A stretch of 64,000 bases of DNA from an uncultured Acidobacteriota bacterium (GTDB taxonomy: Bacteria > Actinomycetota > Acidimicrobiia > Spongiisociales > ZC4RG35): the NCBI GenBank assembly GCA_963848695.1, contig CAWKEI010000010.1, forward strand, positions 4,905-68,904. The letters are read 5' to 3'. Of this stretch, positions 14,905 to 35,877 are shown in pieces. The position numbers and the translations under genes are program-made. Every line of letters begins with the position of its first letter. The stretch's first letter is position 1. The notes beneath the pieces were generated by a model. The model made no database searches. It was not told where the DNA came from and was given only the letters and a program-made list of their open reading frames with translations.

Positions 14905-15908
14905 TTGAGTTCGTAACGGAGCTCTTCTCCAACTTCTGGGTCTCGCTGGCCGGGAAGCTGCTCCTAGTCGCCCTGATGATCCCGCTGGTGGGAATGGTCA
15001 TCGGCTTCGCCGAGATGAAGCTCTCCGCCAAGATGCAGGCCCGGGTCGGTCCCTATTTCGCCGGCGGGCGATGGGGGTGGGCACAGCTCATCGCCGATGG
15101 CGTCAAGTTCTTCCAGAAGGAGGACCTGGTCCCGGACGAAGCCGACCGCCCGGTGTTCAAGCTCGCCCCGGTGTTGGTGCTGGTGAGCACGGTCGCCCTG
15201 CTTGTGGTCATCCCATTCGGCCCGGACCTGATCTTCCGGGATCTGTCCGTTGGAATCTTCTTTGCCCTCGCCATCTCGTCGTTGAGCACCGTCGGCATCC
15301 TCATGGCCGGGTGGTCTTCGGGGAACAAGTACTCCTTGATGGGCGGGCTGCGTGCGGCCGGGCAGCTGATCGCCTATGAGTTGCCACTCGTGCTGGCCGT
15401 CATCGGGTCGGTCATCCTCGCCGGGACCATGAGCATGAGCGGGATCGTGGAAGCTCAGATTGCGGCTGGCTACCCCTACGTGATCCTCCAATTCATCGGC
15501 TTCGGGGTATTCATGATCGCCGCGCTTGCGGAGCTGAGCCGGATTCCCTTCGACATGCCGATCGCCGAGTCGGAACTGGTGATGGGCTATCTCACGGAGT
15601 ACTCGGGCTTCCGCTTCCTATTCTTCTTCCTCGCCGAGTTCGCCAACATGTTCTCCCTCTCGGCGATCGCGGTCACCCTGTTCCTCGGCGGGTACTGGCT
15701 GCCGGGCATACCCGAGGATGCCCTGGCCTATGCCGGGCCCGTCATCCTGCTCGGCAAGACGTTCCTTCTCGTCTTCACCATGATCTGGTTTCGCTGGACC
15801 TTCCCCCGGTTCCGTGAGGACCAACTGCAGAATCTGGCCTGGAAGTGGCTCATCCCCTTGGCCCTGGCCAACATCATCCTCACCGGGGCCTTCAAGGTGT
15901 ACTTGTGA
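14901..15908 (+). CDS. nuoH: NADH-quinone oxidoreductase subunit H, follows nuoD directly (no nuoE/F/G)
   Basis: [16 protein letters not shown]...[32 protein letters not shown], 8-TM. ATGA overlap with the nuoD stop. Confidence 0.9.
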
Positions 15909-15940
15909 CGACGACGAACAACCGTCGTGTGCTGCCCGGC

Positions 15941-16405
15941 ATGGGAATGGCCAAGGGGCTGTGGGTGACCATCTACACGATGTTCCGCACCATCTTCCGC
16001 CCCGGGAAGTACCTGGCCACGGTCAACTACCCCAAGGTCAAGGAGACCCCGGTGCCCCGGGCCCGAGGGGTGATCGCCCTCGACCAGGAGGCGTGCACGG
16101 TGTGCATGCTCTGCGCCCGAAACTGCCCCGACTGGTGCATCTATATCGAGGGACACAAGGAGGAGAAGGCGCCGGACAAGCCCGGCGGCCGGATCAAGGT
16201 TCGCAACACCCTCGACCGGTTCGATATCGACTACGCCCTGTGCATGTACTGCGGAATCTGTGTCGAGGTCTGCCCCTTCGACGCCCTGTTCTGGTCGCCG
16301 GAGTACGAGTACTCGGAGACCCATATGGGTGAGATGCTCCATGACATGGATCGGCTCCAGGACTGGTTGGAGACGGTGCCGGCAGACCCGGAGCTGGAGA
16401 AGTGA
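15941..16405 (+). CDS. nuoI: NADH-quinone oxidoreductase subunit I (2x[4Fe-4S])
   Basis: Two ferredoxin motifs [12 protein letters not shown] and [12 protein letters not shown]. Start may be the GTG 12 nt upstream. Confidence 0.88.
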
Positions 16406-16953
16406 GTTTGGGTGACTGGGTCTCGGCTCCGATCAACTGGGTTTTCGTCGTGGTCGGGGGTTTGACCCTGTTCTCATCGATCAAGGTGGTGACCTCCAAG
16501 AACGTGGTCCACGCCGCCCTGTACCTGATCGGCGCCCTCGGTGGCACCGCCGTCTTGTTCCTGATGCTCTCGGCCGAGTTCGTCGCATGGGTCCTGGTCC
16601 TGGTCTACATCGGTGCAGTCTTGGTCCTCTTCCTCTTCGGGATCATGATCACCCGAGCTCCCACCGGGAAGGACGTGGGGCTGGACTCGCCGAAGAAGGT
16701 ATTGCCCGCGATTCTCTCCGCAACCACCTTCGTCCTCCTCTCCTGGGCCTCCATCGATGGTTTCGGGTCCACCGAGATCGAAGGGCTGGGTGAGGCAACT
16801 TCGACCGAAGTGCTCGGGCTGTCGCTGTTGGGGCGGTTTGTCATCCCATTCGAGGTGGTGTCCTTCGTTCTCCTCGCCGCGCTCGTCGGCGGGATCACCA
16901 TCGCCCGGCGTGATCTGAGCCCTCTCGAAGAAGAACAGCGGGGGGCGGTCTGA
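16402..16953 (+). CDS. nuoJ: NADH-quinone oxidoreductase subunit J
   Basis: 183-aa membrane protein with NuoJ-like N-terminus. GTGA overlap with the nuoI stop. Confidence 0.85.
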
Positions 16954-17258
16954 TGTTGCTCAACCAGTTCCTGATCCTGGCGGCGGCGATGTTCTCCCTC
17001 GGCATCTATGGCCTGCTCGTCCGGCGCAACATCGTGTTGATCCTGCTCTCGGTGGAACTGATGCTGGCCGCGGTAAACATCAACTTGATCGCCTTCGAGT
17101 CGGTCCTCAGATCCCCCGATGCCATCGGCCAGGTCTTCACGGTGTTCGTCATCACAGTGGCCGCCGCCGAGGTCGGGATCGGGCTGGCCATCGTCCTGAT
17201 GATCTTCCGCAATAGGAAGTCTGCAAACGTCGACGAGCTCAATCTGATGAGATGGTGA
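16953..17258 (+). CDS. nuoK: NADH-quinone oxidoreductase subunit K
   Basis: 101 aa, [26 protein letters not shown]...ELMLAAVNINLIAF. Confidence 0.9.
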   Translation: MLLNQFLILAAAMFSLGIYGLLVRRNIVLILLSVELMLAAVNINLIAFESVLRSPDAIGQVFTVFVITVAAAEVGIGLAIVLMIFRNRKSANVDELNLMRW

Positions 17259-17270
17259 AAGTGGCTGTGT

Positions 17271-17372
17271 TTGATTGCCGGCCGACTTCGCCCTTCGGCA
17301 ACCCTCATGTCGCGAGGTGGGCCTCCTATCGCGTCATCACACCTCAGGGCGAACAGACGCCGGTCGGCCGGG
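17271..17372. repeat. ~100-nt hairpin-forming intergenic repeat, copy A, inserted between nuoK and nuoL
   Basis: The 24-nt 5' block TTGATTGCCGGCCGACTTCGCCCT and the 3' block GGGCGAACAGACGCCGGTCGGCCGG are shared with 55883..55986. The blocks can pair (CCGGCCGAC/GTCGGCCGG, TTCGCCC/GGGCGAA) around a ~52-nt variable loop. Confidence 0.5.
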
Positions 17373-17397
17373 GCTTCCGCCTCGCTGGAGATCGACC

Positions 17398-19425
17398 GTG
17401 AGCTGGATCATCGCGACTGAGGCGGAGCACGCGGTCGAGGCCGGTGTGACCGGTGGGTTCTGGGTGGACACCGCCGGGATCATGCTGCTCCTCCCCCTCG
17501 TCGCCTTCCTGCTCATCCTCGCTGTCGGGAAGAGGATGAAGTACCACGGAGCCGAGATCGCCATCGCGGCGCTCGCCATCAACAGCCTCTGGGCCACCGT
17601 CCTGTTCGTCATGAACATGACCGACGGCGTCCTCGCCCAGGAAACCTTCGAGATCGCCTCGATCGGGAGCAATCTCGTCTTCGAGCTGGGATGGGTGGTC
17701 GACGGTCTGTCGATCATGATGTACTTCTTGGTCAACGTGGTCGGCCTGATCGTGTTCATCTACGCGGTCGGCTACATGAAGGGCGACATCAGGGTCGATT
17801 GGTTCTTTGCCGCTTTCTCCCTTTTTGCCGGCTCGATGCTCATCCTGGTGGGCGCCCCCAACCTGATCCAGCTGATCATCGGGTGGGAGGGGGTCGGTCT
17901 CGCTTCCTACTTCCTGATCGGCTTCTACTGGGAGGACATGGCCAACGTGAACGCGGGCAACAAGGCGTTCATGGTCAACAAAGTGGCCGACGTCGGGCTG
18001 ATCCTGGGGGCGATCATCCTCGGGCTCGCCATCGGCACGTTTGACTTCTTCGACATGAGCACGGCTGCCTTCGAGCACTCCGAGCCCCTTGGCGCAGTTG
18101 CCGTCGTCGGTGGAGCCCTGCTCTTCTTTGGAGCGATGGGCAAGAGTGCCCAATTCCCCCTTCACATCTGGCTCCCCGACGCGATGGCCGGCCCGACCCC
18201 GGTCTCGGCGCTGATGCACGCGGCCACCATGGTCACTGCCGGGATCTATCTGATGGGTCGGGTGTTCCCCCTCTTCGAGTACCTCGCCTTCGACATCAGG
18301 CCCTGGATGGTGGCGATCGGGGCCATCACGCTCTTCGGCGTCGGTCTCCTCGCCCTGGTGGCCGACGACATCAAGAAGGTGCTCGCCTATTCCACCGTCT
18401 CCCAGCTCGGGTACATGATGACCGCGGTGGCAGCGGGCGGCTACACGGCCGGCCTCTTCCACCTCTTCACCCACGCCTTCTTCAAGGCACTTCTCTTCCT
18501 TGGGGCCGGGGCGGTGATCCACGCCGTCCATTCCAACAACATGAGCGACATGGGAGGTCTGCGCAAGGCGATGCCCCGCACCTACTGGACCTTTGTCGTC
18601 GGCTCCCTCTCTCTAGCTGGGATCATCCCCCTGGCCGGGTTCTGGTCCAAGGACGAGATCCTGGTTGCCCTGGGTCACGAGGGTTACGTCGCCGTGATGT
18701 GGATCGCCATCGCCGGCGCCTTCGTCACGGCTTTCTACATGACCCGAGCGGTGGCCCTCACCTTCCACGGGGAGTACAAGGGCCAGGGCCACCCCCACGA
18801 GGCACCCGCCATCATGACCGTGCCTTTGGTCTTCTTGGCCATACCGTCGATCCTCTTCGGGTTTTTCAATGTCCCCGGCTGGGAGATCCCCGGCATCGGG
18901 AACTTCAGCCAATGGCTGGCGGTGCGGGTAGTCCCGATGGGCGACGAGCACGCCGAGGCGATCGATCTGGTTCTGGCCGGGAGCGGGTTGTTCGCCGCGC
19001 TCCTCGGCATCGCTCTGGGGTGGATGGTCTGGGGCAAGGACCGGGCGACTCAGGCGGAGCGGGACCGCTTCGAGGTCCCGGCGCTCTATCCGCTGCTGCG
19101 CAACAAGTACTACGTCGACGACCTCGCCGATGGGATCACCGCCGGGACGATGGGCCCGGTGGCCCGGTTCATCAACTGGGTCAACGACTACGTGATCGAC
19201 TGGATCGTCAACGGTGTGGCCTTCCTCACCAAGGGTCTGGGCTCTTTCGTCTACGGCGTGGTCGATCAGCGCGGGGTCGACGGTGTGATCCATGGTCTTG
19301 GCGCCGGGGCGGACGGCGCCGGATCGGCCCTACGGCGATTGCAGACGGGCCGGATTCAGCAGTACGCGGCGTCGTTCGTCGGGGGCGCCCTGGTCTTGAT
19401 CGTCCTGTTCGTGTTCGTGATATAG
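17398..19425 (+). CDS. nuoL: NADH-quinone oxidoreductase subunit L (antiporter-like)
   Basis: 676 aa from GTG (VSWIIATEAE). The upstream part of track ORF 17275.. is translation of the repeat element. Typical NuoL TM architecture with C-terminal long helix region. Confidence 0.9.
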   Translation: MSWIIATEAEHAVEAGVTGGFWVDTAGIMLLLPLVAFLLILAVGKRMKYHGAEIAIAALAINSLWATVLFVMNMTDGVLAQETFEIASIGSNLVFELGWVVDGLSIMMYFLVNVVGLIVFIYAVGYMKGDIRVDWFFAAFSLFAGSMLILVGAPNLIQLIIGWEGVGLASYFLIGFYWEDMANVNAGNKAFMVNKVADVGLILGAIILGLAIGTFDFFDMSTAAFEHSEPLGAVAVVGGALLFFGAMGKSAQFPLHIWLPDAMAGPTPVSALMHAATMVTAGIYLMGRVFPLFEYLAFDIRPWMVAIGAITLFGVGLLALVADDIKKVLAYSTVSQLGYMMTAVAAGGYTAGLFHLFTHAFFKALLFLGAGAVIHAVHSNNMSDMGGLRKAMPRTYWTFVVGSLSLAGIIPLAGFWSKDEILVALGHEGYVAVMWIAIAGAFVTAFYMTRAVALTFHGEYKGQGHPHEAPAIMTVPLVFLAIPSILFGFFNVPGWEIPGIGNFSQWLAVRVVPMGDEHAEAIDLVLAGSGLFAALLGIALGWMVWGKDRATQAERDRFEVPALYPLLRNKYYVDDLADGITAGTMGPVARFINWVNDYVIDWIVNGVAFLTKGLGSFVYGVVDQRGVDGVIHGLGAGADGAGSALRRLQTGRIQQYAASFVGGALVLIVLFVFVI

Positions 19426-19441
19426 GAGAGGTAGAGAGCAA

Positions 19442-21058
19442 ATGGAATTGTTCGAAACGTGGGCCCTCACCCTCATCGTGTTCTTGCCGCTGGCCGGTGT
19501 GCTCCTGATCGGCATCATCCCGAAGACGAACGAGATGGCCCTGAAAGGCACGGCACTGCTGGTCAGCGTGGCCGCGTTTCTTCTCTCCCTGGCGGTGATC
19601 TCACAATTCGATTTCTCGGGGGTCCCCTACAACACCTACCAGTTCGAAGTCAACGAAACCTGGATCGGGGCGATCAACGCCAACTATCACCTCGGTGTCG
19701 ACGGGATCAGCCTTCCCCTCCTCGTCCTCTCCACATTCGTGATGGTGCTGTCGGTCATCTACAGCTGGAACCACTGGGAGGAGCCGCACAACCCCAAGGC
19801 CTTCCTGATCCTCATGCTGATCCTCGCCACCGGGCTCAACGGCACCTTCCTCGCCCTCGATCTGGTCCTCTTCTTCATTTTCTTCGAAGTGGTGCTGCTC
19901 CCGATGTACTTCATGATCGGGATCTGGGGCGATCGCAGCCCGCGGGCGATCCCCGGTTACGGGCGTGAGGTGCAGACCCGTCTCTACGCCGCGATCAAGT
20001 TCTTCCTCTTCACACTGTTCGGTTCCGCCTTCATGCTGCTGGGGTTCCTCGCCCTCTATTTCGAGTCGGGCAACTCGGGCGGCGAGCGCACCTTCGACAT
20101 CACGCAACTGACCGAGCTCGGGGCCTCCGGCGCCTTCACCGGGAGATTCGCCTTCCTGGTCTTTTTCGCCATGTTCCTCGGGTTCGCGGTGAAGGTCCCG
20201 ATGTGGCCACTCCACACCTGGCTGCCCGACGCCCATACCGCTGCACCGACGGTGGGGTCGGTCCTCCTCGCCGCCATCATGCTGAAGCTCGGGTCATACG
20301 GATTCATCAGGATCTCCCTGCCCATCCTCCCCGAGGAGGCGGCCAGTTGGGCCCCCGCCATAGCCATCCTGGCCGTGATCGGCATCATCTATGGGTCGCT
20401 GGCCTGTCTCGCTCAGACCGACATGAAGCGGCTGATCGCGTTCTCCTCGGTCGGTCACATGGGCTTTGTGATGCTCGGGATCGCGACGATGACCGATGTC
20501 GGCATCAACGCCGCCATCATCGGGATGGTGGCCCATGGGCTCATCACCGGACTGCTCTTCTTCCTGGCCGGCTCGATGTCACATCGGTACCACACGAGAG
20601 AGATGTCCCGTCTCGGCGGCAACATGAAGCTGATGCCGGTCATGGGTGGGATCCTGGCCTTCACCGCCATGGCTTCCCTCGGGCTCCCCGGGTTGGCCGG
20701 CTTCTGGGGTGAGTTCATGTCGCTGATCGGCGCCTACAACCCCTTGGCGGGGCTGTCGTTGGGTGTTTTCCGCACCGCGATGGTGATCGGCGCGATCGGG
20801 ACGGTGCTGACGGCCGCGTACATGCTCTACCTGCTCCAGCAGGTCAACCTCGGTGAGCCGGGGGAGGAGTGGCAGGGACACAAGTTCCACGACGTCGACC
20901 GTTTCGAGATGACGGCGTGGGTCCCACTCATCGTCCTGATCGTGGTGATCGGTTTCTATCCCAAGGTCATCTTCAACGCCACCACGGATTCCGTCGTGTC
21001 GCTCGTGGACATGGTGTTCGGTTCCGACACCGTGGCATCCGTTGGGCGGGGAGGCTGA
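19442..21058 (+). CDS. nuoM: NADH-quinone oxidoreductase subunit M
   Basis: 538-aa antiporter-like subunit with conserved WLPDAHTAAPTVGSVLLAAIMLKLG segment. Confidence 0.9.
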   Translation: MELFETWALTLIVFLPLAGVLLIGIIPKTNEMALKGTALLVSVAAFLLSLAVISQFDFSGVPYNTYQFEVNETWIGAINANYHLGVDGISLPLLVLSTFVMVLSVIYSWNHWEEPHNPKAFLILMLILATGLNGTFLALDLVLFFIFFEVVLLPMYFMIGIWGDRSPRAIPGYGREVQTRLYAAIKFFLFTLFGSAFMLLGFLALYFESGNSGGERTFDITQLTELGASGAFTGRFAFLVFFAMFLGFAVKVPMWPLHTWLPDAHTAAPTVGSVLLAAIMLKLGSYGFIRISLPILPEEAASWAPAIAILAVIGIIYGSLACLAQTDMKRLIAFSSVGHMGFVMLGIATMTDVGINAAIIGMVAHGLITGLLFFLAGSMSHRYHTREMSRLGGNMKLMPVMGGILAFTAMASLGLPGLAGFWGEFMSLIGAYNPLAGLSLGVFRTAMVIGAIGTVLTAAYMLYLLQQVNLGEPGEEWQGHKFHDVDRFEMTAWVPLIVLIVVIGFYPKVIFNATTDSVVSLVDMVFGSDTVASVGRGG

Positions 21059-21061
21059 TCC

Positions 21062-22546
21062 TTGCCGTTCGAGATCGACTATCTGGCGCTCGCTCCGGAG
21101 CTGGTGGTGGTGGCCACCATGCTCGGTGTATTCGCCCTCGATCTCGTCCTTCCCCGGTCCAAGAAGTTCTGGACGGCGACCCTGGCAGTTGCGGGCACCG
21201 CTCTGGCCGCTGTCCCGCTGGTGATCCTGGCCGCCGAAGGGACGGTCAGGTCGATGTTCGACGGCTCCTATGTCGTCGACGAATTCGCAGTGATCCTCAA
21301 AGGCGTCTTCATCGTCTCGGCGTACATCGTGCTCCTTATGTCGCACCACTACATCGAGTCCGATCGCTACTACCAGGGCGAGTACTACTTCCTGCTGCTG
21401 GCGTCGGTGCTCGGCTCGCTGGTGATGGCATCGTCTCGCGACCTCATCATCCTGTTCATCGGCCTCGAGCTCACCACCGGCCCGCTCTATCTGCTCGCTG
21501 GTTGGAGGAAGGGCGACGCCAAGTCCAACGAAGCCTCGATGAAGTACTTCATCCTCGGGGTTCTCTCCACCGCGATCCTGCTCTACGGCATGTCGCTGCT
21601 GTACGGGCTCACCGGTGAGGTCACTTTCGCCGGTCTCGCCGAAGCGACCGCCGGCCTCGCCGACGAGCCGATCATGGTGGTGGCCCTCTTCGGGCTGATC
21701 GTCGGGTTCGGATTCAAGATCTCGGCGGTTCCGTTCCACTTCTGGGCACCCGACACGTATGAGGGCGCTCCCACCCCGGTGGCCGCCTATCTATCGGTCA
21801 ACTCGAAGGCAGCCGGCTTCGTCGCCTTCCTCCTGATCATGTACCAGGCATTGCCCGACATCTCCGAGGTGTGGGCGCCGGCCTTGTGGATCCTGGCGGT
21901 GGCCTCGATGACGGTCGGCAATCTGGCGGCTCTGCGCCAGACCAACATCGTCAGGCTGCTCGCCTATTCGTCCATCGCCCAGGCCGGGTTCATGCTGGTC
22001 CCCTTCGCCTCGGCCGCCGTGGCCGGCGCCGACCTGGCCGAGGCGTTTTCGGCGACCCTGGTCTACCTGGTGATCTATGCCGTGATGAACCTGGGGGCAT
22101 TCGCCGTGGTCATCGCCGGGGCGAGGAAGACCCGATCCGGAGAGATAGCGGATTGGGCGGGCCTCGCCCAGGTCGACGTCAGGCTGGGTGTCCTCGTGGC
22201 GGTGTTCTTCTTCAGTCTCGCCGGCATCCCGCCCCTGGCGGGCTGGTTCGCCAAGTTCGCCATGTTCCGCTCGGTGATCATCGCCGGCGGTACCGCCACA
22301 GTGGTCCTCGCCGCCATTGCCGCGGTGAACTCGGTGATCGCGTTCTACTACTACGCCCGGGTGGTGAAGTCGGTCTGGCTCGACGACCCGATCCGCGAAT
22401 TCGCTCCTGAGGCCGAGGCGGCGCCGGCCGGCTCGCTCCGGCTGGCCCTGCTGGTGTCTCTGACGATCACGGTCCTGGTCGGGTTCTTCCCGGCGATCGC
22501 CACTTTCATCGGAGAAGCCAGCCGGGTCATCGCCAGCGGCGGCTGA
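21062..22546 (+). CDS. nuoN: NADH-quinone oxidoreductase subunit N
   Basis: 494-aa antiporter-like subunit with FHFWAPDTYEGAPTPVAAYLSV motif. Last gene of the operon. Confidence 0.9.
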   Translation: MPFEIDYLALAPELVVVATMLGVFALDLVLPRSKKFWTATLAVAGTALAAVPLVILAAEGTVRSMFDGSYVVDEFAVILKGVFIVSAYIVLLMSHHYIESDRYYQGEYYFLLLASVLGSLVMASSRDLIILFIGLELTTGPLYLLAGWRKGDAKSNEASMKYFILGVLSTAILLYGMSLLYGLTGEVTFAGLAEATAGLADEPIMVVALFGLIVGFGFKISAVPFHFWAPDTYEGAPTPVAAYLSVNSKAAGFVAFLLIMYQALPDISEVWAPALWILAVASMTVGNLAALRQTNIVRLLAYSSIAQAGFMLVPFASAAVAGADLAEAFSATLVYLVIYAVMNLGAFAVVIAGARKTRSGEIADWAGLAQVDVRLGVLVAVFFFSLAGIPPLAGWFAKFAMFRSVIIAGGTATVVLAAIAAVNSVIAFYYYARVVKSVWLDDPIREFAPEAEAAPAGSLRLALLVSLTITVLVGFFPAIATFIGEASRVIASGG

Positions 22547-26045: not shown

Positions 26046-27107
26046 GTGAGCCAACCTGTGAAAAAGCGTCTGATCATCATCGGTGCGGTTGTCGCCGTAC
26101 TGCTCCTCGGGACAGGAGCATTCTTTGCCATGTCCACCTGGGGAGATGTCAATCGGGTCAGCCTCGACCAAGAGCGGCCTCAGATCCAGGTTCCAGAGGA
26201 GGACGCGTCCGTCGACGAGTCGGATGCCGAAACCGACCTTCTGGGCTCCGCTCCGGCAGGCACCGAGGTGTACCTCCTGGTCGGCTCGGACTCGAGAGAT
26301 CATCTCGAGAGCGTCGAGGGTTTTGGCGACTTCGCCGGGCAGAGGGCCGACGTCGTGATGGTGCTGATTCGCCCCGCCGACGGGTCGAGAGCCGCCCTCC
26401 TGTCCCTTCCTCGAGATCTCCTCGTCGACAATGTCTGCCAACAGGGAGGCGAGCATCGTCTCAACGATGCCCTCCAGGGATGCTCGGCGGTCAACGGGGC
26501 CACGGCCCTGGCCATGACCGTGGAGTCGGTCATTGGCCAAAACGTGGATCATTTCGCATTGGTCGACCTGGCTGGTTTCCAGGAGGCTGTCGATGCGGTA
26601 GGCGGATACGAGATATGTGTCGAACGGGCGGTCCGCGATCAGAGGTCGCTGCTCGAGTTGCCGGCCGGGTGCACACTCGCCACCGGGGCCGAGACATTGG
26701 CTTGGTTGCGCTCGCGGAGCACCGAGGAGCTGACCGCCGAAGGATGGCGGGTCATGCCCGGTGTCAATGATCTGACCAGGAACCAGCGTCAGAGGGAATT
26801 CCTTCTCACCATGATGGGCCAGCTGTCCGATTTCGGTAGCCCCACCGCCATCGCCGATGCGGCGTCGACGATCGCGCCCTTCATCACTGTCGACTCCGAG
26901 CTGTCCTTCCTGGATGCGGTAGATCTGGCTTGGACGATGCGTGGGCTGAGCCGAGGCCACATCGACGAGCTGGAGATACCGGTCTCAGACGCGACCACGG
27001 CGTCTGGCGCAGCCGTACTCGTTGCTGGTGTGGACATCGCCGACCTGGTCGACGACTACCTCGCCCCGGAGATCGCCGAGGACGACTCCGGCGCTTTCGC
27101 TGGTTGA
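26046..27107 (+). CDS. LytR-CpsA-Psr (LCP) family cell-envelope phosphotransferase
   Basis: N-terminal TM anchor, YLLVGSDSRD and ADVVMVLIRP...LLSLPRDLLV LCP core motifs. Confidence 0.8.
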   Translation: MSQPVKKRLIIIGAVVAVLLLGTGAFFAMSTWGDVNRVSLDQERPQIQVPEEDASVDESDAETDLLGSAPAGTEVYLLVGSDSRDHLESVEGFGDFAGQRADVVMVLIRPADGSRAALLSLPRDLLVDNVCQQGGEHRLNDALQGCSAVNGATALAMTVESVIGQNVDHFALVDLAGFQEAVDAVGGYEICVERAVRDQRSLLELPAGCTLATGAETLAWLRSRSTEELTAEGWRVMPGVNDLTRNQRQREFLLTMMGQLSDFGSPTAIADAASTIAPFITVDSELSFLDAVDLAWTMRGLSRGHIDELEIPVSDATTASGAAVLVAGVDIADLVDDYLAPEIAEDDSGAFAG

Positions 27108-28099
27108 GGCTCCCGCCCGGTCAGATCGAGACCAAGCGATTCCCCATCGTCGGCGAGCGAACGCCATCGGCCGAGCTGGCCGACCCAGGGTGGTGGCGGC
27201 TCGACCTGACCGGGTCCGTCCACAGCCCGATCACCCTCGATCTCGATGCCTTCCTCGCCCGCGCGGTCCAGGAGCTCGTGTTCGACATCCATTGCGTCAC
27301 GAGCTGGTCTCGCTTCGGCTCCACCTGGACCGGGCTCCCGTTGGGAATCCTCCTCGACGAAGCCGGGCTCCTCGAGCAGGCTCGTTTCGTCTCCTTCGAG
27401 GCCTACTCGGAGCGCGGCCACCACACGTCGCTTCCACTCGATGTGGCGCGGGATGACAGCTGGCTGGTGCATTCGTTCGAAGGGAAACCACTCGAGGTCG
27501 GCCACGGTGGGCCGGTAAGGGTCGTCACCCCCAGCCGTTACTTCTACAAGTCGATCAAGTGGGTGCGGCGCATCGTGGTTCTCGAGGAAGACCGGCTCGG
27601 GTGGTGGGAGGAGGGCTCCTATTACCACAACAACGCCGATCCTTGGGCGGGCGACGAACGATTCACCACCGGCTCGATCCGCCCCGACCAATTGGACCGG
27701 TTCGTCCATGCCCGGTCTTACGACAAATACCGGAGCCGGGTGATGATGGGGCTCGATCTGCGAGGTTGGGTGCCCGCCAAAATGGACCTGCGACGTCTCT
27801 ATCTGAAGAACTGCGACATCCGCGGCGTCGATCTGGCCGGGGCGGATCTGCGTGAGTCGAATCTCTCCCTCAGCGACCTGCGGGGGGCTGATTTGCGGGG
27901 CGCCGATCTCTCCGGTTCCGATCTCGAAGGAGTCAATTTCTCCGGAGCCAACCTGGCCGGGTCCGATCTGAGCGCGACGGCTCTCTCCGCTACTCGTTTC
28001 GTCGACGAAACAGGTGGCGCCATCCTCGAGGGCGCCAGGTTCGACGGCTCGTATGGGCTGGTCGAAGCCCAAGAGGAGTACGTCGCCAGTCGCGCCTAG
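27104..28099 (+). CDS. sulfite-oxidase-like molybdopterin-binding oxidoreductase domain fused to a C-terminal pentapeptide-repeat domain
   Basis: The N-terminal ~200 aa carry the Mo-site motif HCVTSWSRFGSTWTGLPL (Cys ligand) and RVVTPSRYFYKSIKWVRRIVV. The C-terminal ~90 aa are tandem A(D/N)LxG pentapeptides (DLRGADLRGADLSGSDLEGVNFSGANLAGSDL). The start (TTG overlapping the LCP stop) is uncertain. Confidence 0.6.
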   Translation: MRLPPGQIETKRFPIVGERTPSAELADPGWWRLDLTGSVHSPITLDLDAFLARAVQELVFDIHCVTSWSRFGSTWTGLPLGILLDEAGLLEQARFVSFEAYSERGHHTSLPLDVARDDSWLVHSFEGKPLEVGHGGPVRVVTPSRYFYKSIKWVRRIVVLEEDRLGWWEEGSYYHNNADPWAGDERFTTGSIRPDQLDRFVHARSYDKYRSRVMMGLDLRGWVPAKMDLRRLYLKNCDIRGVDLAGADLRESNLSLSDLRGADLRGADLSGSDLEGVNFSGANLAGSDLSATALSATRFVDETGGAILEGARFDGSYGLVEAQEEYVASRA

Positions 28100-28154: not shown

Positions 28155-29135
28155 ATGGGACCGAAACGTGTGTTCTCGGGCATTCAGCCCACCGGCGACT
28201 TCCATGTCGGCAGCTATGTGGGCGCCCTGAGGAACTGGGTGTCGCTGCAGGACGAGTACGACGAGACGATCTATTGCGTAGTCGACCTGCATGCCATGAC
28301 CATCCCCTATGACGCGGCGGACCTGAGAGCGGGCCGTCACGAATCCGCCAAGATGCTGCTCGCGGTGGGCGTCGATCCCGATCGATCGCTCCTCTACTAC
28401 CAGTCCGAGGTGCCCCAGCACGTCGAGCTGGCGTGGATTCTGGGGACGCTGGCCGGTCTCGGGCAGCTGGAACGGATGACCCAGTTCAAGGAAAAGTCAG
28501 ATCGTGCCCGCCAGAACCTGGGGATCTTCGCCTATCCGGTTCTGCAGGCGGCCGACATCCTGGTCCACAAGGCGCACGCGGTACCCGTCGGGGATGACCA
28601 GGCCCAGCATCTCGAGCTGACCAGAGACCTGGCCCAGCGCTTCAACACTCGGTTCGGCGAGGAGTTCCCTCTTCCCGAGACGATCACCCCTGAGATCGGC
28701 GCCCGCATCATGTCGCTGACGGATCCCACGGCGAAGATGTCGAAGTCGGATCCGAGCCCGCGCTCCCGAATCCTCCTCAAGGACTCACCCGAGGAGATCG
28801 CCAAGAAGGTCAAGGCGGCAGTAACGGACACAGGCACCGATGTCGCCTATGACTGGGAGTCGAAGCCGGGCGTCTCGAACCTCCTCGAGCTCTTCAGCGT
28901 GTTCGCCAAACGGCCCATCGCCGATCTGGTCGCTGAGTACTCCGGTGCCGGTTACGGCGTTTTCAAGGTGGCGGCCGCCGAGGCGATCGCCGACGGCCTG
29001 TCGCCGGTACGGGAGGCATATCAGGCTCTCGACGACAAAGACGTGGCCGACGTGATGGCTCGGGGGGCTGCTACCGCTCGAGACCGGGCAGAGACCGCGA
29101 TGAAGACGGTCCGGGAGAAGGTCGGGATCATTTAG
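28155..29135 (+). CDS. trpS: tryptophan--tRNA ligase
   Basis: HIGH-class motif GIQPTGDFHVGSYVGAL and KMSKSDP motif, ~326 aa from the internal ATG. Confidence 0.9.
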   Translation: MGPKRVFSGIQPTGDFHVGSYVGALRNWVSLQDEYDETIYCVVDLHAMTIPYDAADLRAGRHESAKMLLAVGVDPDRSLLYYQSEVPQHVELAWILGTLAGLGQLERMTQFKEKSDRARQNLGIFAYPVLQAADILVHKAHAVPVGDDQAQHLELTRDLAQRFNTRFGEEFPLPETITPEIGARIMSLTDPTAKMSKSDPSPRSRILLKDSPEEIAKKVKAAVTDTGTDVAYDWESKPGVSNLLELFSVFAKRPIADLVAEYSGAGYGVFKVAAAEAIADGLSPVREAYQALDDKDVADVMARGAATARDRAETAMKTVREKVGII

Positions 29136-31198: not shown

Positions 31199-32764
31199 AT
31201 GAGTCCCGACGGAGACACACGGGCAAAGTCGGCCGGCAGTGAAACAGTTCTGGTGCTCGACTTTGGCGCCCAATACGCCCAGCTGATCGCGCGACGGGTG
31301 CGAGAGAGTCATGTTCGGTCTGAGATCGTCTCCCGGGAGATCAGCCGTGAAGAGATCAGGAGTCGCAACCCGATCGGTCTCATCCTCTCCGGCGGGCCGG
31401 CATCGGTGTATGCAGCGGATGCCTATCGGATGGATCCCGCCATCCTCGAAATGGGGATTCCGGTGCTCGGGATTTGTTACGGCCACCAACTTCTGGCCGA
31501 TCTCGCCGGGGGAACGGTGGCCAACACCGGTAGCGCCGAATACGGGAACACCTCTTTGGAGATGACCGGGGATTCGGTGCTGCTGAAAGACCTTCCCAAG
31601 CAGCAGCAGGTCTGGATGTCGCATCAAGACCAGGTGACCGAGCCCCCGGAAGGATTTGTCGCGGTCGCCACCTCCGATGGTGCCCGGGTGGCGGCGATGG
31701 AGGATCGCGATCGAGGGCTGTATGGGGTCCAGTTCCACCCCGAGGTCGCCCACACCCCCAGGGGCGCCGAGATCCTGAGACGCTTCCTCTATGACGTGTG
31801 CGGCGCCGCCCCGTCGTGGACCTCCCATTCGATCATCGAATCACAGGTCGAGTCGATCAGAGCCCAGGTCGGGGATGGGAAGGTGATCTGTGGCCTGTCC
31901 GGGGGAGTCGACTCTGCGGTGGCCGCCGCCCTCGTCCACGAGGCGATCGGTGACCAGCTCACCTGCATATTCGTCGATCACGGCCTGCTGCGGTCTGGGG
32001 AGGCGGAGCAGGTTGAGGAGACCTTCCGCTCCCATTTCGAGGTCGATTTCGTCCACGTCAAGGCGGCCGATCGGTTTCTCGAGCTCCTCGCTGGTGTCAT
32101 CGATCCCGAGCAGAAGCGCCGGATCATCGGCGAGACGTTCATCCGAGTCTTCGAGGAGGCGGTTGGGCCTCTAGGTGACGCCCGCTTCCTGGTCCAGGGA
32201 ACGCTGTACCCCGACGTGATCGAGTCGGGGTCGGCCAGCGCGGCGACGATCAAGACTCATCACAACGTCGGCGGCCTGCCCGACGACATGAAGTTCGAGC
32301 TGGTCGAGCCGCTGCGCGATCTGTTCAAGGACGAGGTGAGGGCGATTGGGGAAGAGCTGGGGCTGCCTGAGGAGATCGTGTGGCGCCAGCCTTTCCCCGG
32401 GCCGGGGCTTGCGGTGCGGGTGATCGGCGAGGTGACCCGGGAGCGACTGGAGCTGCTCCGAGCCGCCGACCTGATCGTGACCGAGGAGATCAAACGGGCT
32501 GGTCTCTACCGTGAGATCTGGCAGGCATTCGCCGTTCTCCCCTCGGTCCGGACGGTTGGAGTCCAAGGGGATCTCCGCACCTACGCGTATCCACTGGTGG
32601 TTCGGGCCGTCACCTCCGAGGATGCCATGACGGCGGATTGGGCCCGATTGCCCTACGAAGTCCTGGAGCGGATCTCCAGCAGGGTGATCAACGAGGTCCC
32701 CGGGATAAACCGGGTCGCCTACGACATCTCGAGCAAACCACCCGCCACCATCGAGTGGGAATAG
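31199..32764 (+). CDS. guaA: GMP synthase (glutamine-hydrolysing)
   Basis: GATase ICYGHQLL Cys motif, PP-loop [11 protein letters not shown]-terminal dimerisation domain ending ...IEWE. Confidence 0.9.
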
Positions 32765-32885: not shown

Positions 32886-34916
32886 TTGGACCTCAACACC
32901 CCCGAGCTGATGCGGATATTCCGCGACGAGCTGGAAGATCGTTCCGGTCGCTTGGTCGCGGGCGCGATCGCTCTTCGCCAAAACGATCTCGATGATGCAC
33001 GCCTCCAGAACCTGATCCGGGACGCCCACACCATCAAGGGCTCGGCGGGCCTGCTCGGATACGACGACATCAGACAGGTCGCCGCACGTCTCGAGCATCT
33101 CTGGAAGCAGATCTCCGAGGGATACTCGCCGCCCAGCGACGTTATCGTGGCCATGGAGGCAGGTGCCGGGCGTCTTCTTCCTTCGCTCGATGGGGACGAT
33201 GCTGATCTCGCCTCCATCGCCGACAAGCTCCTGCTTGCAGAGCGACCCGAGGACATGGGCGAGGGAGCTGATTGGTCCCCGCCGGCCGAGGTCATCCCAT
33301 TGCGGCGTCCCGAGCCAGGCAGTCTCGGGGGGCTACTCACCTCCGTGTCCGACTCCCTGCTCGGCGGGTCGACCCGGGTCGACACCGGTGAGCTCTACCG
33401 CCTCATCAACCGCATCGTCGAGGTCTCGCTCGATTCCGAAGCGCTGGCCGACCTCTCACTGCTCTCGATCGAGGGATCGGACCCGGCTCTCTTCAGGAAA
33501 TCCTGGCGTCAGCAATTGGAGAGGCTCGCCGCCTCCGTCTCCGAGATCCAGGATCAGGCCGTTGCCCTGGCCAACATCCCGTTCCGGGAAGCCACTGCCA
33601 CCTTCCCCCAATTCGTTCGTTACCTGGGCCGACGGATGGGCAAAGACGTCCGCTTCGAGCTCGTGGGCGACGACGTGCAACTCGATCGGCAGATCGTCGA
33701 CCTACTCCGCGAGCCGCTGCGCCACCTCCTGGTCAATGCCATCGACCATGGGATCGAGCCCACGCAGGTCCGTGTCGCCGCCGGGAAGAGGGCAACCGGG
33801 ACGGTGAGTGTCGGCGCCGAGATCATCGACGAGCGAGTCGAGGTGTCGGTCTCGGACGACGGCCGCGGGATCGATTGGGACAAGGTGGCCGACGTGGCCA
33901 CCGAGCGAGCCATCCCCTTCGTCTTCTCCGACCTGAGCCCCGTTCTGTTCCAACCCGGCTTCACGACTGCCGACCTGGTCACCGACTTCTCCGGTGCGGG
34001 TGACGGGCTGGCGGCAGTGCGGGACATCGTGGAGAAGGTCAACGGCGTGGTCCACGTCGAGAGCCCCGAGGGCATGGGGACACGCGTCACCATGACGCTG
34101 CCCCTCTCAATGGTGCTGCAGAACGTGGTGGTGGTCGCTACCGGGGACCAGTTCTGGGGTCTTCCCGAGGCGTCGATCGAGGCGGCCATGCCGCTCACCC
34201 GGGCCGAGATCAGCCCAACCGATGGCGGCCGGGAGGTCAGATTCCAGAGCAGGGAGATCCCATGTGTCTCGTTGGCGAAGGCAATGGGTGTGACCAACCC
34301 GGGAGATGAGTCCGAGCTGTTGGTCATCAACACCAGGTTCGGGCTGGTGGCCATCACCGTCAGCGAGCTCATCGATCGTCGTCGTGTTGCGGTGAAGAAC
34401 CTCGGCCCGATCCTGGAAGGAAGCGGCCACGTGACCGGAGCGGCCCTGCTCGGAGGTGGCCAGGTCCTCGTTGTCCTCGACCCGAATTTCCTTGGCTATC
34501 TCGCCAAGCGGCGCCCAGGCGTCGTTGGGCGCCGCCCCCGGATCCTGGTTGTCGACGATTCGGCCGGCGTCCGCCAGCTCCTCTCGGCCACCCTGAACGG
34601 GGCCGGCTTCGAGGTCGAGGTGGCCGCAGGGGCACGTGAGGCGATGATGGCAATGGTCAATGTGGGTTTCGAGGCGATGGTCATCGACTTTTCGATGCCC
34701 CGGTCCAACGGCGTCGAGCTGGTTAGGGCGATGCGCGCCTCCGACCAGAATGTCCCCATCGTCATGGTCTCTGGTGTTGCGACTCAGGACGAGAAGCAGG
34801 CGGCTTGGGAAGCCGGGGTTGATGCGTACCTGGACAAGTTCGACCTTCGCCAGGGCGTGCTCACCGAGACCCTGCGCCGGATGATCGGCGTCGACGAGGG
34901 TGCCGACGCCGGCTGA
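32886..34916 (+). CDS. CheA-like hybrid histidine kinase: Hpt - HATPase_c - CheW-like - receiver domain
   Basis: Hpt HTIKGSAGLLGY. N-box LVNAIDHGIE, G1 DDGRGID, G2 GAGDGL. CheW-like block (VVVATGDQFWGLPEASIEAA...VAITVSELIDRRRVAVKNLG). C-terminal REC domain (ILVVDDS...MVIDFSMP...AYLDKF). Confidence 0.75.
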   Translation: MDLNTPELMRIFRDELEDRSGRLVAGAIALRQNDLDDARLQNLIRDAHTIKGSAGLLGYDDIRQVAARLEHLWKQISEGYSPPSDVIVAMEAGAGRLLPSLDGDDADLASIADKLLLAERPEDMGEGADWSPPAEVIPLRRPEPGSLGGLLTSVSDSLLGGSTRVDTGELYRLINRIVEVSLDSEALADLSLLSIEGSDPALFRKSWRQQLERLAASVSEIQDQAVALANIPFREATATFPQFVRYLGRRMGKDVRFELVGDDVQLDRQIVDLLREPLRHLLVNAIDHGIEPTQVRVAAGKRATGTVSVGAEIIDERVEVSVSDDGRGIDWDKVADVATERAIPFVFSDLSPVLFQPGFTTADLVTDFSGAGDGLAAVRDIVEKVNGVVHVESPEGMGTRVTMTLPLSMVLQNVVVVATGDQFWGLPEASIEAAMPLTRAEISPTDGGREVRFQSREIPCVSLAKAMGVTNPGDESELLVINTRFGLVAITVSELIDRRRVAVKNLGPILEGSGHVTGAALLGGGQVLVVLDPNFLGYLAKRRPGVVGRRPRILVVDDSAGVRQLLSATLNGAGFEVEVAAGAREAMMAMVNVGFEAMVIDFSMPRSNGVELVRAMRASDQNVPIVMVSGVATQDEKQAAWEAGVDAYLDKFDLRQGVLTETLRRMIGVDEGADAG

Positions 34917-34971
34917 GGATCGAAATCGCGCCCCTTCAGGTAGCTTTTGAGCAGAGCGAAAGAGACGTGAG

Positions 34972-35877
34972 TTGCCCCAGATACCGGATTCACTGAGCTG
35001 GCTGTCCCTCGCCCTCGCCGTGGTGGGTGTGGTGGGCGTCGTCTGGGCCATCGCCATCACCCGTCAGGGCCGGCAGCGCGAGCGTGAGGTGATGCGTCTC
35101 TCCGAGGAGGCGCACCGGATCAAAGACGAGTTCGTGGCCATGGTGAGCCATGAGCTGCGAACTCCCTTGACCTCGATCGCCGGATTCGCCGACACATTGG
35201 TGGAGTCGTGGAAGGACCTGCCCGACGAAGAGGTCGACGAGTTCCTCGGGATCATCAACCGCCAGTCGATATACCTGAGCGACCTGGTGGAGGACGTTCT
35301 GGTCATCCCGCGTCTCGAGGCGGACCGGCTCCGCTTCCACCCCGAGTTGTTCGATCTCGGCGATCTCCTCGGCGATGTTGCCAAGATGGTGTTCCCGACC
35401 GGCGGGAGGAAGAGCGCAGTCGTCTCGCTTCCCGACGGGGTGAGGGTCCGGGCCGATCGCCGCAGAGTTCAACAGGTGATCCGGAACCTGATGGAAAACG
35501 CCCGCAAGTACGGCGGAGATCAGGTGATGGTCGAAGGCTTCGTCCTCGGGGATCAATACCTCGTTGTCATATCCGACAACGGGCCCGGCGTCCCCGACGA
35601 AGAGACACAGCGTGTGTTCGAGAACTTCGAACAGGTATCGAAGGGCGACAGCAGGGAGGCGACCGGGATCGGCTTGGGTCTTCCCATCGCCCGGCGACTC
35701 GCACGCGCCATGGGAGGAGAGGTTTGGTATGAGCGCCGGTTCCCGACAGGTGCCCGCTTCTGCTTCTCACTTCCGCTGCGTCGCCGGTCGGTCATGGGCG
35801 AGGACGAGGTGCAGGAGGTGGTCGATCTGGATGCCACCGCCTCGGTGGAGTTCGACGACACGGTGCTCGCCAACTGA
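34972..35877 (+). CDS. membrane-anchored sensor histidine kinase (HisKA + HATPase_c)
   Basis: One N-terminal TM helix, H-box VSHELRTPLTSI, N/G boxes NLMENARKYGG and DNGPGVP...GIGLGL. Confidence 0.8.
   Translation: MPQIPDSLSWLSLALAVVGVVGVVWAIAITRQGRQREREVMRLSEEAHRIKDEFVAMVSHELRTPLTSIAGFADTLVESWKDLPDEEVDEFLGIINRQSIYLSDLVEDVLVIPRLEADRLRFHPELFDLGDLLGDVAKMVFPTGGRKSAVVSLPDGVRVRADRRRVQQVIRNLMENARKYGGDQVMVEGFVLGDQYLVVISDNGPGVPDEETQRVFENFEQVSKGDSREATGIGLGLPIARRLARAMGGEVWYERRFPTGARFCFSLPLRRRSVMGEDEVQEVVDLDATASVEFDDTVLAN

Follow-up and report, generated by a model that had tools for sequence, protein, structure and literature searches.

Enzymes with the sulfite oxidase (SUOX) fold carry a conserved cysteine that ligates molybdenum (Mo) (PMC11194511, PMC7759655). 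The sulfite oxidase family has three recognized branches, and the third, which occurs in environmental bacteria and archaea, comprises small, single-subunit cytoplasmic enzymes that were listed as uncharacterized in a 2020 review (PMC7759655). We analyzed a 64,000-nucleotide stretch of DNA from an uncultured bacterium (contig CAWKEI010000010.1 of assembly GCA_963848695.1, positions 4,905 to 68,904; hereafter the window), in which a gene at positions 27104-28099 encodes a 331-residue protein that joins a SUOX-fold molybdenum-cofactor (Moco) domain to a C-terminal pentapeptide-repeat beta-helix. The best sequence relative of this protein with a solved structure is YedY/MsrP from E. coli (1xdq, E 2e-11), which is a periplasmic protein-methionine-sulfoxide reductase. 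We found that the fusion protein belongs to a large family that forms one clade across seven phyla, and that near-invariant polar residues line a single face of its beta-helix. Taken as a whole, our analysis leans toward the reading that the protein is a cytoplasmic Moco oxidoreductase in which the beta-helix serves as a fixed wall or docking surface.

Domain architecture of the fusion protein

The fusion gene was delimited as an open reading frame (ORF) that carries Pfam matches to both domains, and its product is identical, with the same start, to a 331-residue protein already present in NCBI/ENA (P0001). All window coordinates given in this text refer to the plus strand. The longest possible reading of the ORF opens at 26930; the start supported by homologues is the TTG at 27104, as homologous proteins begin 2-6 residues ahead of an LPPGQ motif. 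This TTG (27104-27106) overlaps the stop codon TGA (27105-27107) of the upstream LCP gene in the tetranucleotide TTGA (27104-27107), as had been recognized, together with the position of the gene between LCP and trpS, in a first-pass annotation made from the sequence. The stop codon of the fusion gene is the TAG at 28097-28099.

The same annotation had proposed that a single protein combines a SUOX-fold Mo domain with pentapeptide repeats, and the Pfam search bore this out. Oxidored_molyb (PF00174) matched residues 26-168 with 109.4 bits (cut-off 24; E 1.9e-31), and Pentapeptide (PF00805) was matched with 67 bits (cut-off 20.2; E 9e-19), so that both matches lie far past chance; two further related repeat models matched residues ~227-310. 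The Mo-binding motifs that had been quoted were located as well, HCVTSWSRFGSTWTGLPL at residues 63-80 and RVVTPSRYFYKSIKW at residues 139-153.

The SUOX-fold Moco domain comprises residues 1-190 (27104-27673) and shows the SUOX fold in three dimensions. It is followed by a fusion-specific linker of residues 191-212 (27674-27739), which contains a helix at residues 194-201 and is missing from the stand-alone relatives. The pentapeptide repeats form a right-handed beta-helix of about 4.5 turns at residues 213-320 (27740-28063), and the protein ends with an amphipathic helix at residues 321-331 (28064-28096), which is indicated by both AlphaFold2 models (residues 321-330) and by conservation, with G318, L319, Q323 and L327 as the conserved residues around it. 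The repeats follow the tandem A(D/N)LXX pattern of the PF00805 type and have the features of a right-handed quadrilateral beta-helix. About 16 repeats in about 90 residues had been estimated in the first-pass annotation; the repeats themselves were confirmed, and the count was too low, since phasing gave 17-19 pentapeptides over residues ~217-316, corresponding to ~4.5 turns of a four-sided helix that is then followed by the terminal helix. The repeat region is acidic, with a net charge of -7 and an isoelectric point of 4.45. The Mo-co dimerization domain PF03404 was not reported in the fusion protein by Pfam at E values up to 0.01.

Conservation was examined in a set of 281 non-identical fused proteins, of which 39 are less than 50% identical to the window protein. 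Members of this family have no room for a Sec or twin-arginine translocation (Tat) signal: a median of 5.5 residues precedes LPPGQ, and no more than 12 residues are found ahead of it in 239 of the 260 members in which the motif was located. The earlier statement that no signal peptide is present therefore holds for the family, and judged by its sequence, the fusion protein appears to be cytoplasmic.

The Mo domain and its placement in the sulfite oxidase family

Cys64, which lies in the motif HCVTSW and is encoded by the TGC codon at 27293-27295, aligned with Cys102 of YedY (chain 1xdq_A), which is the molybdenum ligand. Cys64 is conserved in 100% of the 281 family sequences and is the predicted ligand in the fusion protein. 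Further invariant or near-invariant residues in this set are D61, H63, V65, T66 and W68 of the Mo-binding motifs around the cysteine; H134, G135, P137 and R139; Y146, F147, Y148, K149, S150, K152 and W153; and G166, W168, E169, Y174 and H175. These motifs are also present in the stand-alone group, with small changes. Five positions, namely G17, E18, S102, R104 and H106, are invariant in the fused clade only, and the stand-alone consensus differs there. The difference is well seen at residues 102-106 (S-E-R-G-H; 27407-27421), where Ser102, Arg104 and His106 are found in 99%, 98% and 100% of the fused proteins, respectively, whereas the stand-alone consensus reads GGYTT.

The stand-alone relatives fit 'group 3', the third branch of the sulfite oxidase family. 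They share with the fusion protein the LPPGQ motif, the DIHCVTxWS motif around the Mo-ligand cysteine and the motifs HGGPxR...RYF(Y/W)KSxKW and GxWE..YH..ADPW; they are 40-47% identical to it over residues 2-190 and likewise contain no signal peptide. In contrast, the stand-alone enzymes end at approximately residue 190 of the fusion protein, without the linker and the beta-helix, lie outside the fused clade and have other residues at E18, S102, R104 and H106. The fused proteins fit best as a derived offshoot or sister clade of group 3 rather than as plain group 3 enzymes, because they form a separate clade and contain an additional 140 residues of linker and repeat domain. We take YuiH from B. 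subtilis to be of the group 3 type; no description of its function was found in the literature.

Comparison with the better-described members of the family revealed clear differences. The fusion protein contains no Tat signal, unlike the periplasmic YedY/MsrP, and MsrP has no pentapeptide domain. The classical sulfite oxidases, SorA, SorT, SoxC and the plant and yeast nitrate reductases contain the PF03404 dimerization domain as their additional domain, which was not found here. These classical sulfite-oxidizing enzymes and nitrate reductases, including chicken sulfite oxidase, are 20-26% identical to the fusion protein, which lacks their heme or FAD partner domains. No NCBIfam equivalog or specific model reached its cut-off with the fusion protein: the MsrP model NF003767 scored 66.8 bits against a cut-off of 207, SoxC 57 against 420 and SorA 37 against 600, and SorT was also far below its threshold.

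Distribution of the fusion family

The first-pass annotation knew of no characterized Mo enzyme with such a domain and had named a common annotated architecture among the findings that would refute its observation; the architecture turned out to be widespread, and the databases carry it under generic names only. Both domains are present in 120 of the 120 nearest 90%-identity clusters, which are 64-100% identical to the window protein. A search with a profile built from only the Mo domains of diverse fused members retrieved 7909 of 8000 candidates at E <= 1e-10, and repeats are carried by 119 of the best 120 clusters. At 50% clustering, ~25 two-domain clusters were found among the top 150 matches, the remainder being giant repeat-only proteins. 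This persistence of both domains (120/120 and 119/120 clusters, seven phyla) suggests that the whole architecture is under selection.

Among 80 listed loci, taken from one genome per species, the full-length fusion is present at 38, in seven phyla. The fused loci are recorded under Acidimicrobiia, Acidobacteriota (Thermoanaerobaculia, Holophagales), Myxococcales, Planctomycetota (Pirellulales, Phycisphaerales), Verrucomicrobiota, Anaerolineae, Nevskia and Burkholderiales, so that at the phylum level the span also covers Myxococcota, Chloroflexota and Pseudomonadota. Nearly all genomes found to carry the fused gene are metagenome-assembled, and the 38 listed here include no isolate. The remaining 42 loci, which include Thermoplasmata, Asgard archaea and Alphaproteobacteria among others, contain the Mo domain alone in ORFs of ~180-230 residues with 39-47% identity. 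In a rough neighbor-joining tree of the Mo domain, a single clade holds the fused proteins and leaves the stand-alone proteins outside, and four short sequences inside this clade are probable fragments. The single clade points to a single old fusion event that has been retained since.

Some members deviate from the standard architecture. P0215 has an additional N-terminal DUF454 membrane domain, P0147 and P0164 have a common extra N-terminal segment of ~125 residues, and P0192 has an extra N-terminus of ~330 residues without a Pfam match. The fused gene copy of locus L004 (6001-7131) encodes 377 residues and matches the query only up to residue 306, likely owing to a frameshift near the 3' end in this long-read assembly.

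The family is thus large, phylogenetically wide and already present in databases, and no study of it was found. The earlier view that the combination has no characterized precedent held in that neither a paper on it nor a solved structure containing both domains was found, although the architecture itself proved to be common; no published description of the fusion was identified, and the 2008 SUOX-fold survey may already include it. Database entries name these proteins 'molybdopterin-dependent oxidoreductase', 'DMSO/TMAO reductase YedYZ catalytic subunit', 'nitrate reductase' or 'pentapeptide repeat-containing protein'. The family-model scores give no support to 'nitrate reductase' or 'YedYZ catalytic subunit', which is a lesson for the annotation of these proteins.

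Conserved face and predicted packing of the beta-helix

Each repeat was placed on one of the four faces of the beta-helix, and the entropy of the outward-facing positions was compared. One face, with its centers at L234, L254, L274 and L294, showed values of 0.66-0.74 bits, while the other three faces showed 1.6-2.4 bits. The residues of this face, here called face B, form a stripe spanning residues 233-296 (27800-27991), with one residue group in each turn. Within it, the conservation of N253, D273, E275 and G276 stays at 95% or above in the members that are less than 50% identical to the window protein, and the main group of the family also conserves K235, S255, L256, S295 and A296. Such one-sided conservation of exposed polar residues indicates a specific interaction surface.

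Two AlphaFold2 predictions were compared. With an alignment of 29 close sequences, the model had a mean predicted local distance difference test score (pLDDT) of 79.6 and a predicted template modeling score (pTM) of 0.56, the linker was unconfident and the model was uninformative about domain packing. With 147 sequences of 40-95% identity, the pLDDT rose to 95.3 and the pTM to 0.88, with no segment below 50, and the linker region at residues 171-220 had mean pLDDT values of 81-94 in blocks of 10 residues. Because the larger domain accounts for only 57% of the residues, a pTM of 0.88 would not be expected without a confident prediction of the relative placement of the domains, and we take the two to form one rigid unit. 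The structure prediction that the first-pass annotation had called for thus implies a helix fixed on the Mo domain, and on the strength of this model, we consider the beta-helix to be probably rigidly packed.

Genomic context

The upstream neighbor of the fusion gene is a LytR_cpsA_psr (LCP) gene at 26046-27107 (PF03816, E 1.8e-26), and the downstream neighbor at 28155-29135 is trpS, which encodes tryptophanyl-tRNA synthetase (PF00579, E 5.8e-74). In 15 Acidimicrobiia-like loci (L001-L015), the gene order is GNAT, NUDIX, LCP, fusion gene, trpS, CPBP protease and IMPDH-like gene. LCP adjoins the fusion gene in 13 of these 15 loci, with L009 having no LCP gene there, and the trpS synteny is found within L001-L014. 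L001, L002, L004, L005 and L015 share gene order with the window and the Acidimicrobiia genomes, with 60-100% protein identity; these five are labeled as uncultured Acidobacteriota, which may be a mislabeling, and the window probably stems from an Acidimicrobiia-like actinobacterium. The spacing between LCP and the fusion gene ranges from a 4-nucleotide overlap to gaps of roughly 85 nucleotides; the start and stop codons overlap only in the window and in its 95% relative L001, and the gaps in the other relatives are roughly 6-85 nucleotides. When the window neighbors were compared with all 80 loci by tblastn, synteny was found within the Acidimicrobiia-like group only. Gene order thus identifies the LCP/trpS setting as lineage synteny and not as a conserved functional linkage. 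Apart from a single weak terminator-like match within the LCP gene, at its 5' end, the stretch from the start of the NUDIX gene to the end of trpS showed no promoter- or terminator-like site, which is compatible with co-transcription in the Acidimicrobiia-like lineage.

At the 23 other fused loci, the neighboring genes formed 101 ORFs, which we subjected to all-against-all clustering and Pfam searches. The commonest families are generic signaling domains, each found in no more than five ORFs, and no recurrent adjacent heme, flavin or iron-sulfur partner, MsrQ-like protein or Moco gene was detected. Neither an MsrQ-like protein nor another membrane cytochrome is among the identified window neighbors or the recurrent families of these loci. 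Adjacent genes outside the Acidimicrobiia-like group include Usp, cation-diffusion-facilitator (CDF) transporters, methyltransferases, a PDZ protein and an FAD oxidase. On the 12-Mb marine chromosome OZ375331.1, the genes that flank the fused gene are divergently oriented and include no likely partner, and this copy looks monocistronic. Among the 86 neighboring ORFs of the stand-alone relatives, SmpB (7/86) and deoxyhypusine synthase (5/86) recur, which probably also reflects lineage synteny.

Several individual arrangements were observed in this survey. In L034 (4778-5911; Anaerolineae), an LCP gene lies directly upstream of the fused gene, which is the sole such case outside the Acidimicrobiia-like group. 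A CDF gene starts 30-37 nucleotides downstream of the fused gene in L027 (1602-2507; Nevskia) and L029 (7020-7937; Burkholderiales). In two Acidobacteriota loci, L018 (3374-5974; Thermoanaerobaculia) and L039 (3702-5897), a multidomain signaling gene ends 24-101 nucleotides upstream on the same strand and, judged by eye, encodes a response-regulator domain followed by PAS-like repeats. This layout is similar to the pruR-dcpA pair, in which a SUOX-fold protein is encoded with a diguanylate cyclase, and is confined to the one lineage. Response_reg, PAS and GGDEF are the commonest families in the pooled neighbor scan, the pooled counts of which do not resolve the matching ORFs. Scattered glutaredoxin, glutathione S-transferase, rubrerythrin and FMN-reductase genes were seen near the stand-alone Mo-domain genes (L038, L040-L080).

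Elsewhere in the window, moaA (749-1753; Radical_SAM and Mob_synth_C), whose product catalyzes the first reaction in molybdenum-cofactor synthesis, is located 25 kb away from the fusion gene, and the organism therefore encodes at least this initial step of the Moco pathway. Six hydrophobic ORFs of 186, 183, 101, 716, 538 and 494 residues at 15845-22546 resemble membrane subunits of NADH dehydrogenase (nuo) by eye. A CheA-like hybrid kinase (Hpt, HATPase_c, CheW, Response_reg) is followed by a HisKA/HATPase_c kinase at 32886-35877, with guaA (31199-32764) just before this pair. No Rfam family or tRNA gene was detected in the window.

Proposed function and alternative explanations

We consider it very probable that the fusion protein binds Moco and is catalytic. 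In the reading that we prefer, the catalytic domain would have descended from the small cytoplasmic group 3 enzymes, and a beta-helix of ~4.5 turns would have been joined to its C-terminus once, long ago, and then kept. The helix would act as a built-in wall or docking platform that shapes access to the Mo centre or holds a partner or substrate, thereby giving specificity. The chemistry would be a two-electron oxygen-atom transfer at the Cys-ligated Mo centre, as in the SUOX family, with the reduction of an S-oxide, an N-oxide or an oxyanion favored and electrons supplied by a soluble donor whose gene lies elsewhere in the genome. A more specific version of this proposal, in which N253, D273 and E275 of face B would form a composite recognition site with E18, R104 and H106 of the Mo domain and the enzyme would act on a macromolecular substrate, appears unlikely to us; such substrates might be oxidized methionine or another oxidized group on specific proteins, as for the periplasmic MsrP, or a modified nucleic acid.

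Several points weigh against the preferred reading. The pTM is indirect evidence for fixed packing, and we infer, rather than see in modeled contacts, that face B touches the Mo domain or the active-site funnel; the conserved stripe could instead mediate homodimerization or bind an external partner. Clade markers dominated the mutual information with average product correction that was computed for the 281 sequences (effective number ~173); no contacts could be reliably derived from it, and F187-L256 and W120-W222/P224 are suggestive pairs at most. Both the reductive direction and the proposed class of substrate are guesses that stem from the analogy with YedY/MsrP and the cytoplasmic location. 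In addition, no recurrent neighbor among the 101 ORFs of the 23 other fused loci indicates a substrate or an electron donor, and the genomic context therefore yields neither.

Among the alternatives, homodimerization through the conserved face, the C-terminal helix or both is compatible with the preferred reading, and we regard it as a minor possibility. The beta-helix sits C-terminal to the Mo domain like the dimerization domain of sulfite oxidase, for which no PF03404 counterpart was found here, and the conserved amphipathic helix after the repeats would suit such a role, as MfpA and Qnr dimerize through their C-terminal ends. However, YedY and the stand-alone group 3 proteins need no such domain, and dimerization leaves the fusion-specific invariant residues of the Mo domain unexplained. 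The first-pass annotation had also raised the DNA mimicry of pentapeptide-repeat proteins; in that case, the repeats would recruit the Mo enzyme to a DNA-binding protein such as gyrase or would protect topoisomerases. Qnr, MfpA and AlbG have the same repeat type, quadrilateral beta-helix fold and acidic repeats as the fusion protein, and searches by sequence and by fold gave weak hits on MfpA, Qnr, AlbG and EfsQnr. The acidity is nevertheless generic to A(D/N)LXX repeats, and the NCBIfam scores of 33.6 for MfpA (cut-off 360) and 22.6 for Qnr (cut-off 240) are approximately ten times below the cut-offs. DNA-mimic pentapeptide proteins are stand-alone dimeric rods with 8-10 turns per monomer, whereas the ~4.5 turns found here are predicted to pack rigidly against the Mo domain; moreover, the conservation is restricted to one face that includes a basic residue, and no gyrase or mfpB-like neighbors were found among the loci surveyed. 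Together, these differences make a role as a DNA mimic very improbable. A pentapeptide-type beta-helix is also present in SopA and NleL, the bacterial HECT-like E3 ligases, but it is N-terminal there, and these are secreted effectors with unrelated chemistry and no sequence relationship outside the repeats.

Alternatively, the fusion protein might bind a pterin or Moco without catalysis and serve as a sensor or regulator, its output surface being the helix. It would then resemble PruR, in which a Trp replaces the Mo-ligand Cys, the cleft is truncated and the protein is secreted (PMC11194511). The invariance of the cysteine and of the D-x-H-C-V-T-x-W and H-G-x-P-x-R motifs in the fused family, the missing signal peptide and the confinement of the signaling neighbor to one lineage render this improbable. 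A functional tie with the upstream LCP enzyme in cell-envelope assembly might be suggested by the four-base overlap with the LCP stop, by the continuity between the two genes, which no promoter- or terminator-like site interrupts apart from the weak match within the LCP 5' end, and by the adjacency in 13 of the 15 Acidimicrobiia-like loci and in the Anaerolineae locus L034. We consider such a tie very improbable, as the adjacency is missing at 22 of the 23 loci outside the Acidimicrobiia-like group and in L009, and the block from GNAT to the IMPDH-like gene looks like housekeeping synteny. Moreover, the catalytic domains of LCP enzymes act outside the membrane, unlike the predicted cytoplasmic location of the fusion protein. 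Finally, the joining of two genes by an assembly or frameshift artifact is excluded by the comparative data. A frameshift or stop between the domains, which the first-pass annotation had flagged, was looked for and none was found; the frame is continuous, and the conserved linker and the architecture recur in hundreds of independent assemblies from several phyla. The probable frameshift in L004 shortens the match and does not create the fusion.

Implications for the family

The fused clade represents a large, well-defined offshoot of the uncharacterized third branch of the SUOX family and provides a structural lead into it. With its additional domain, the clade presents experimental targets, namely the beta-helix, predicted to be rigid, with its single near-invariant polar face and the matching clade-specific residues of the catalytic domain. 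If the helix does shape the access of a substrate or partner, it would represent a new mode of specificity for molybdenum enzymes and a new role for pentapeptide-repeat domains as well; otherwise, the fusion would be a common but unstudied domain combination. The composite site, if real, would define a new functional class of molybdoenzymes and would give the group 3 branch its first function.

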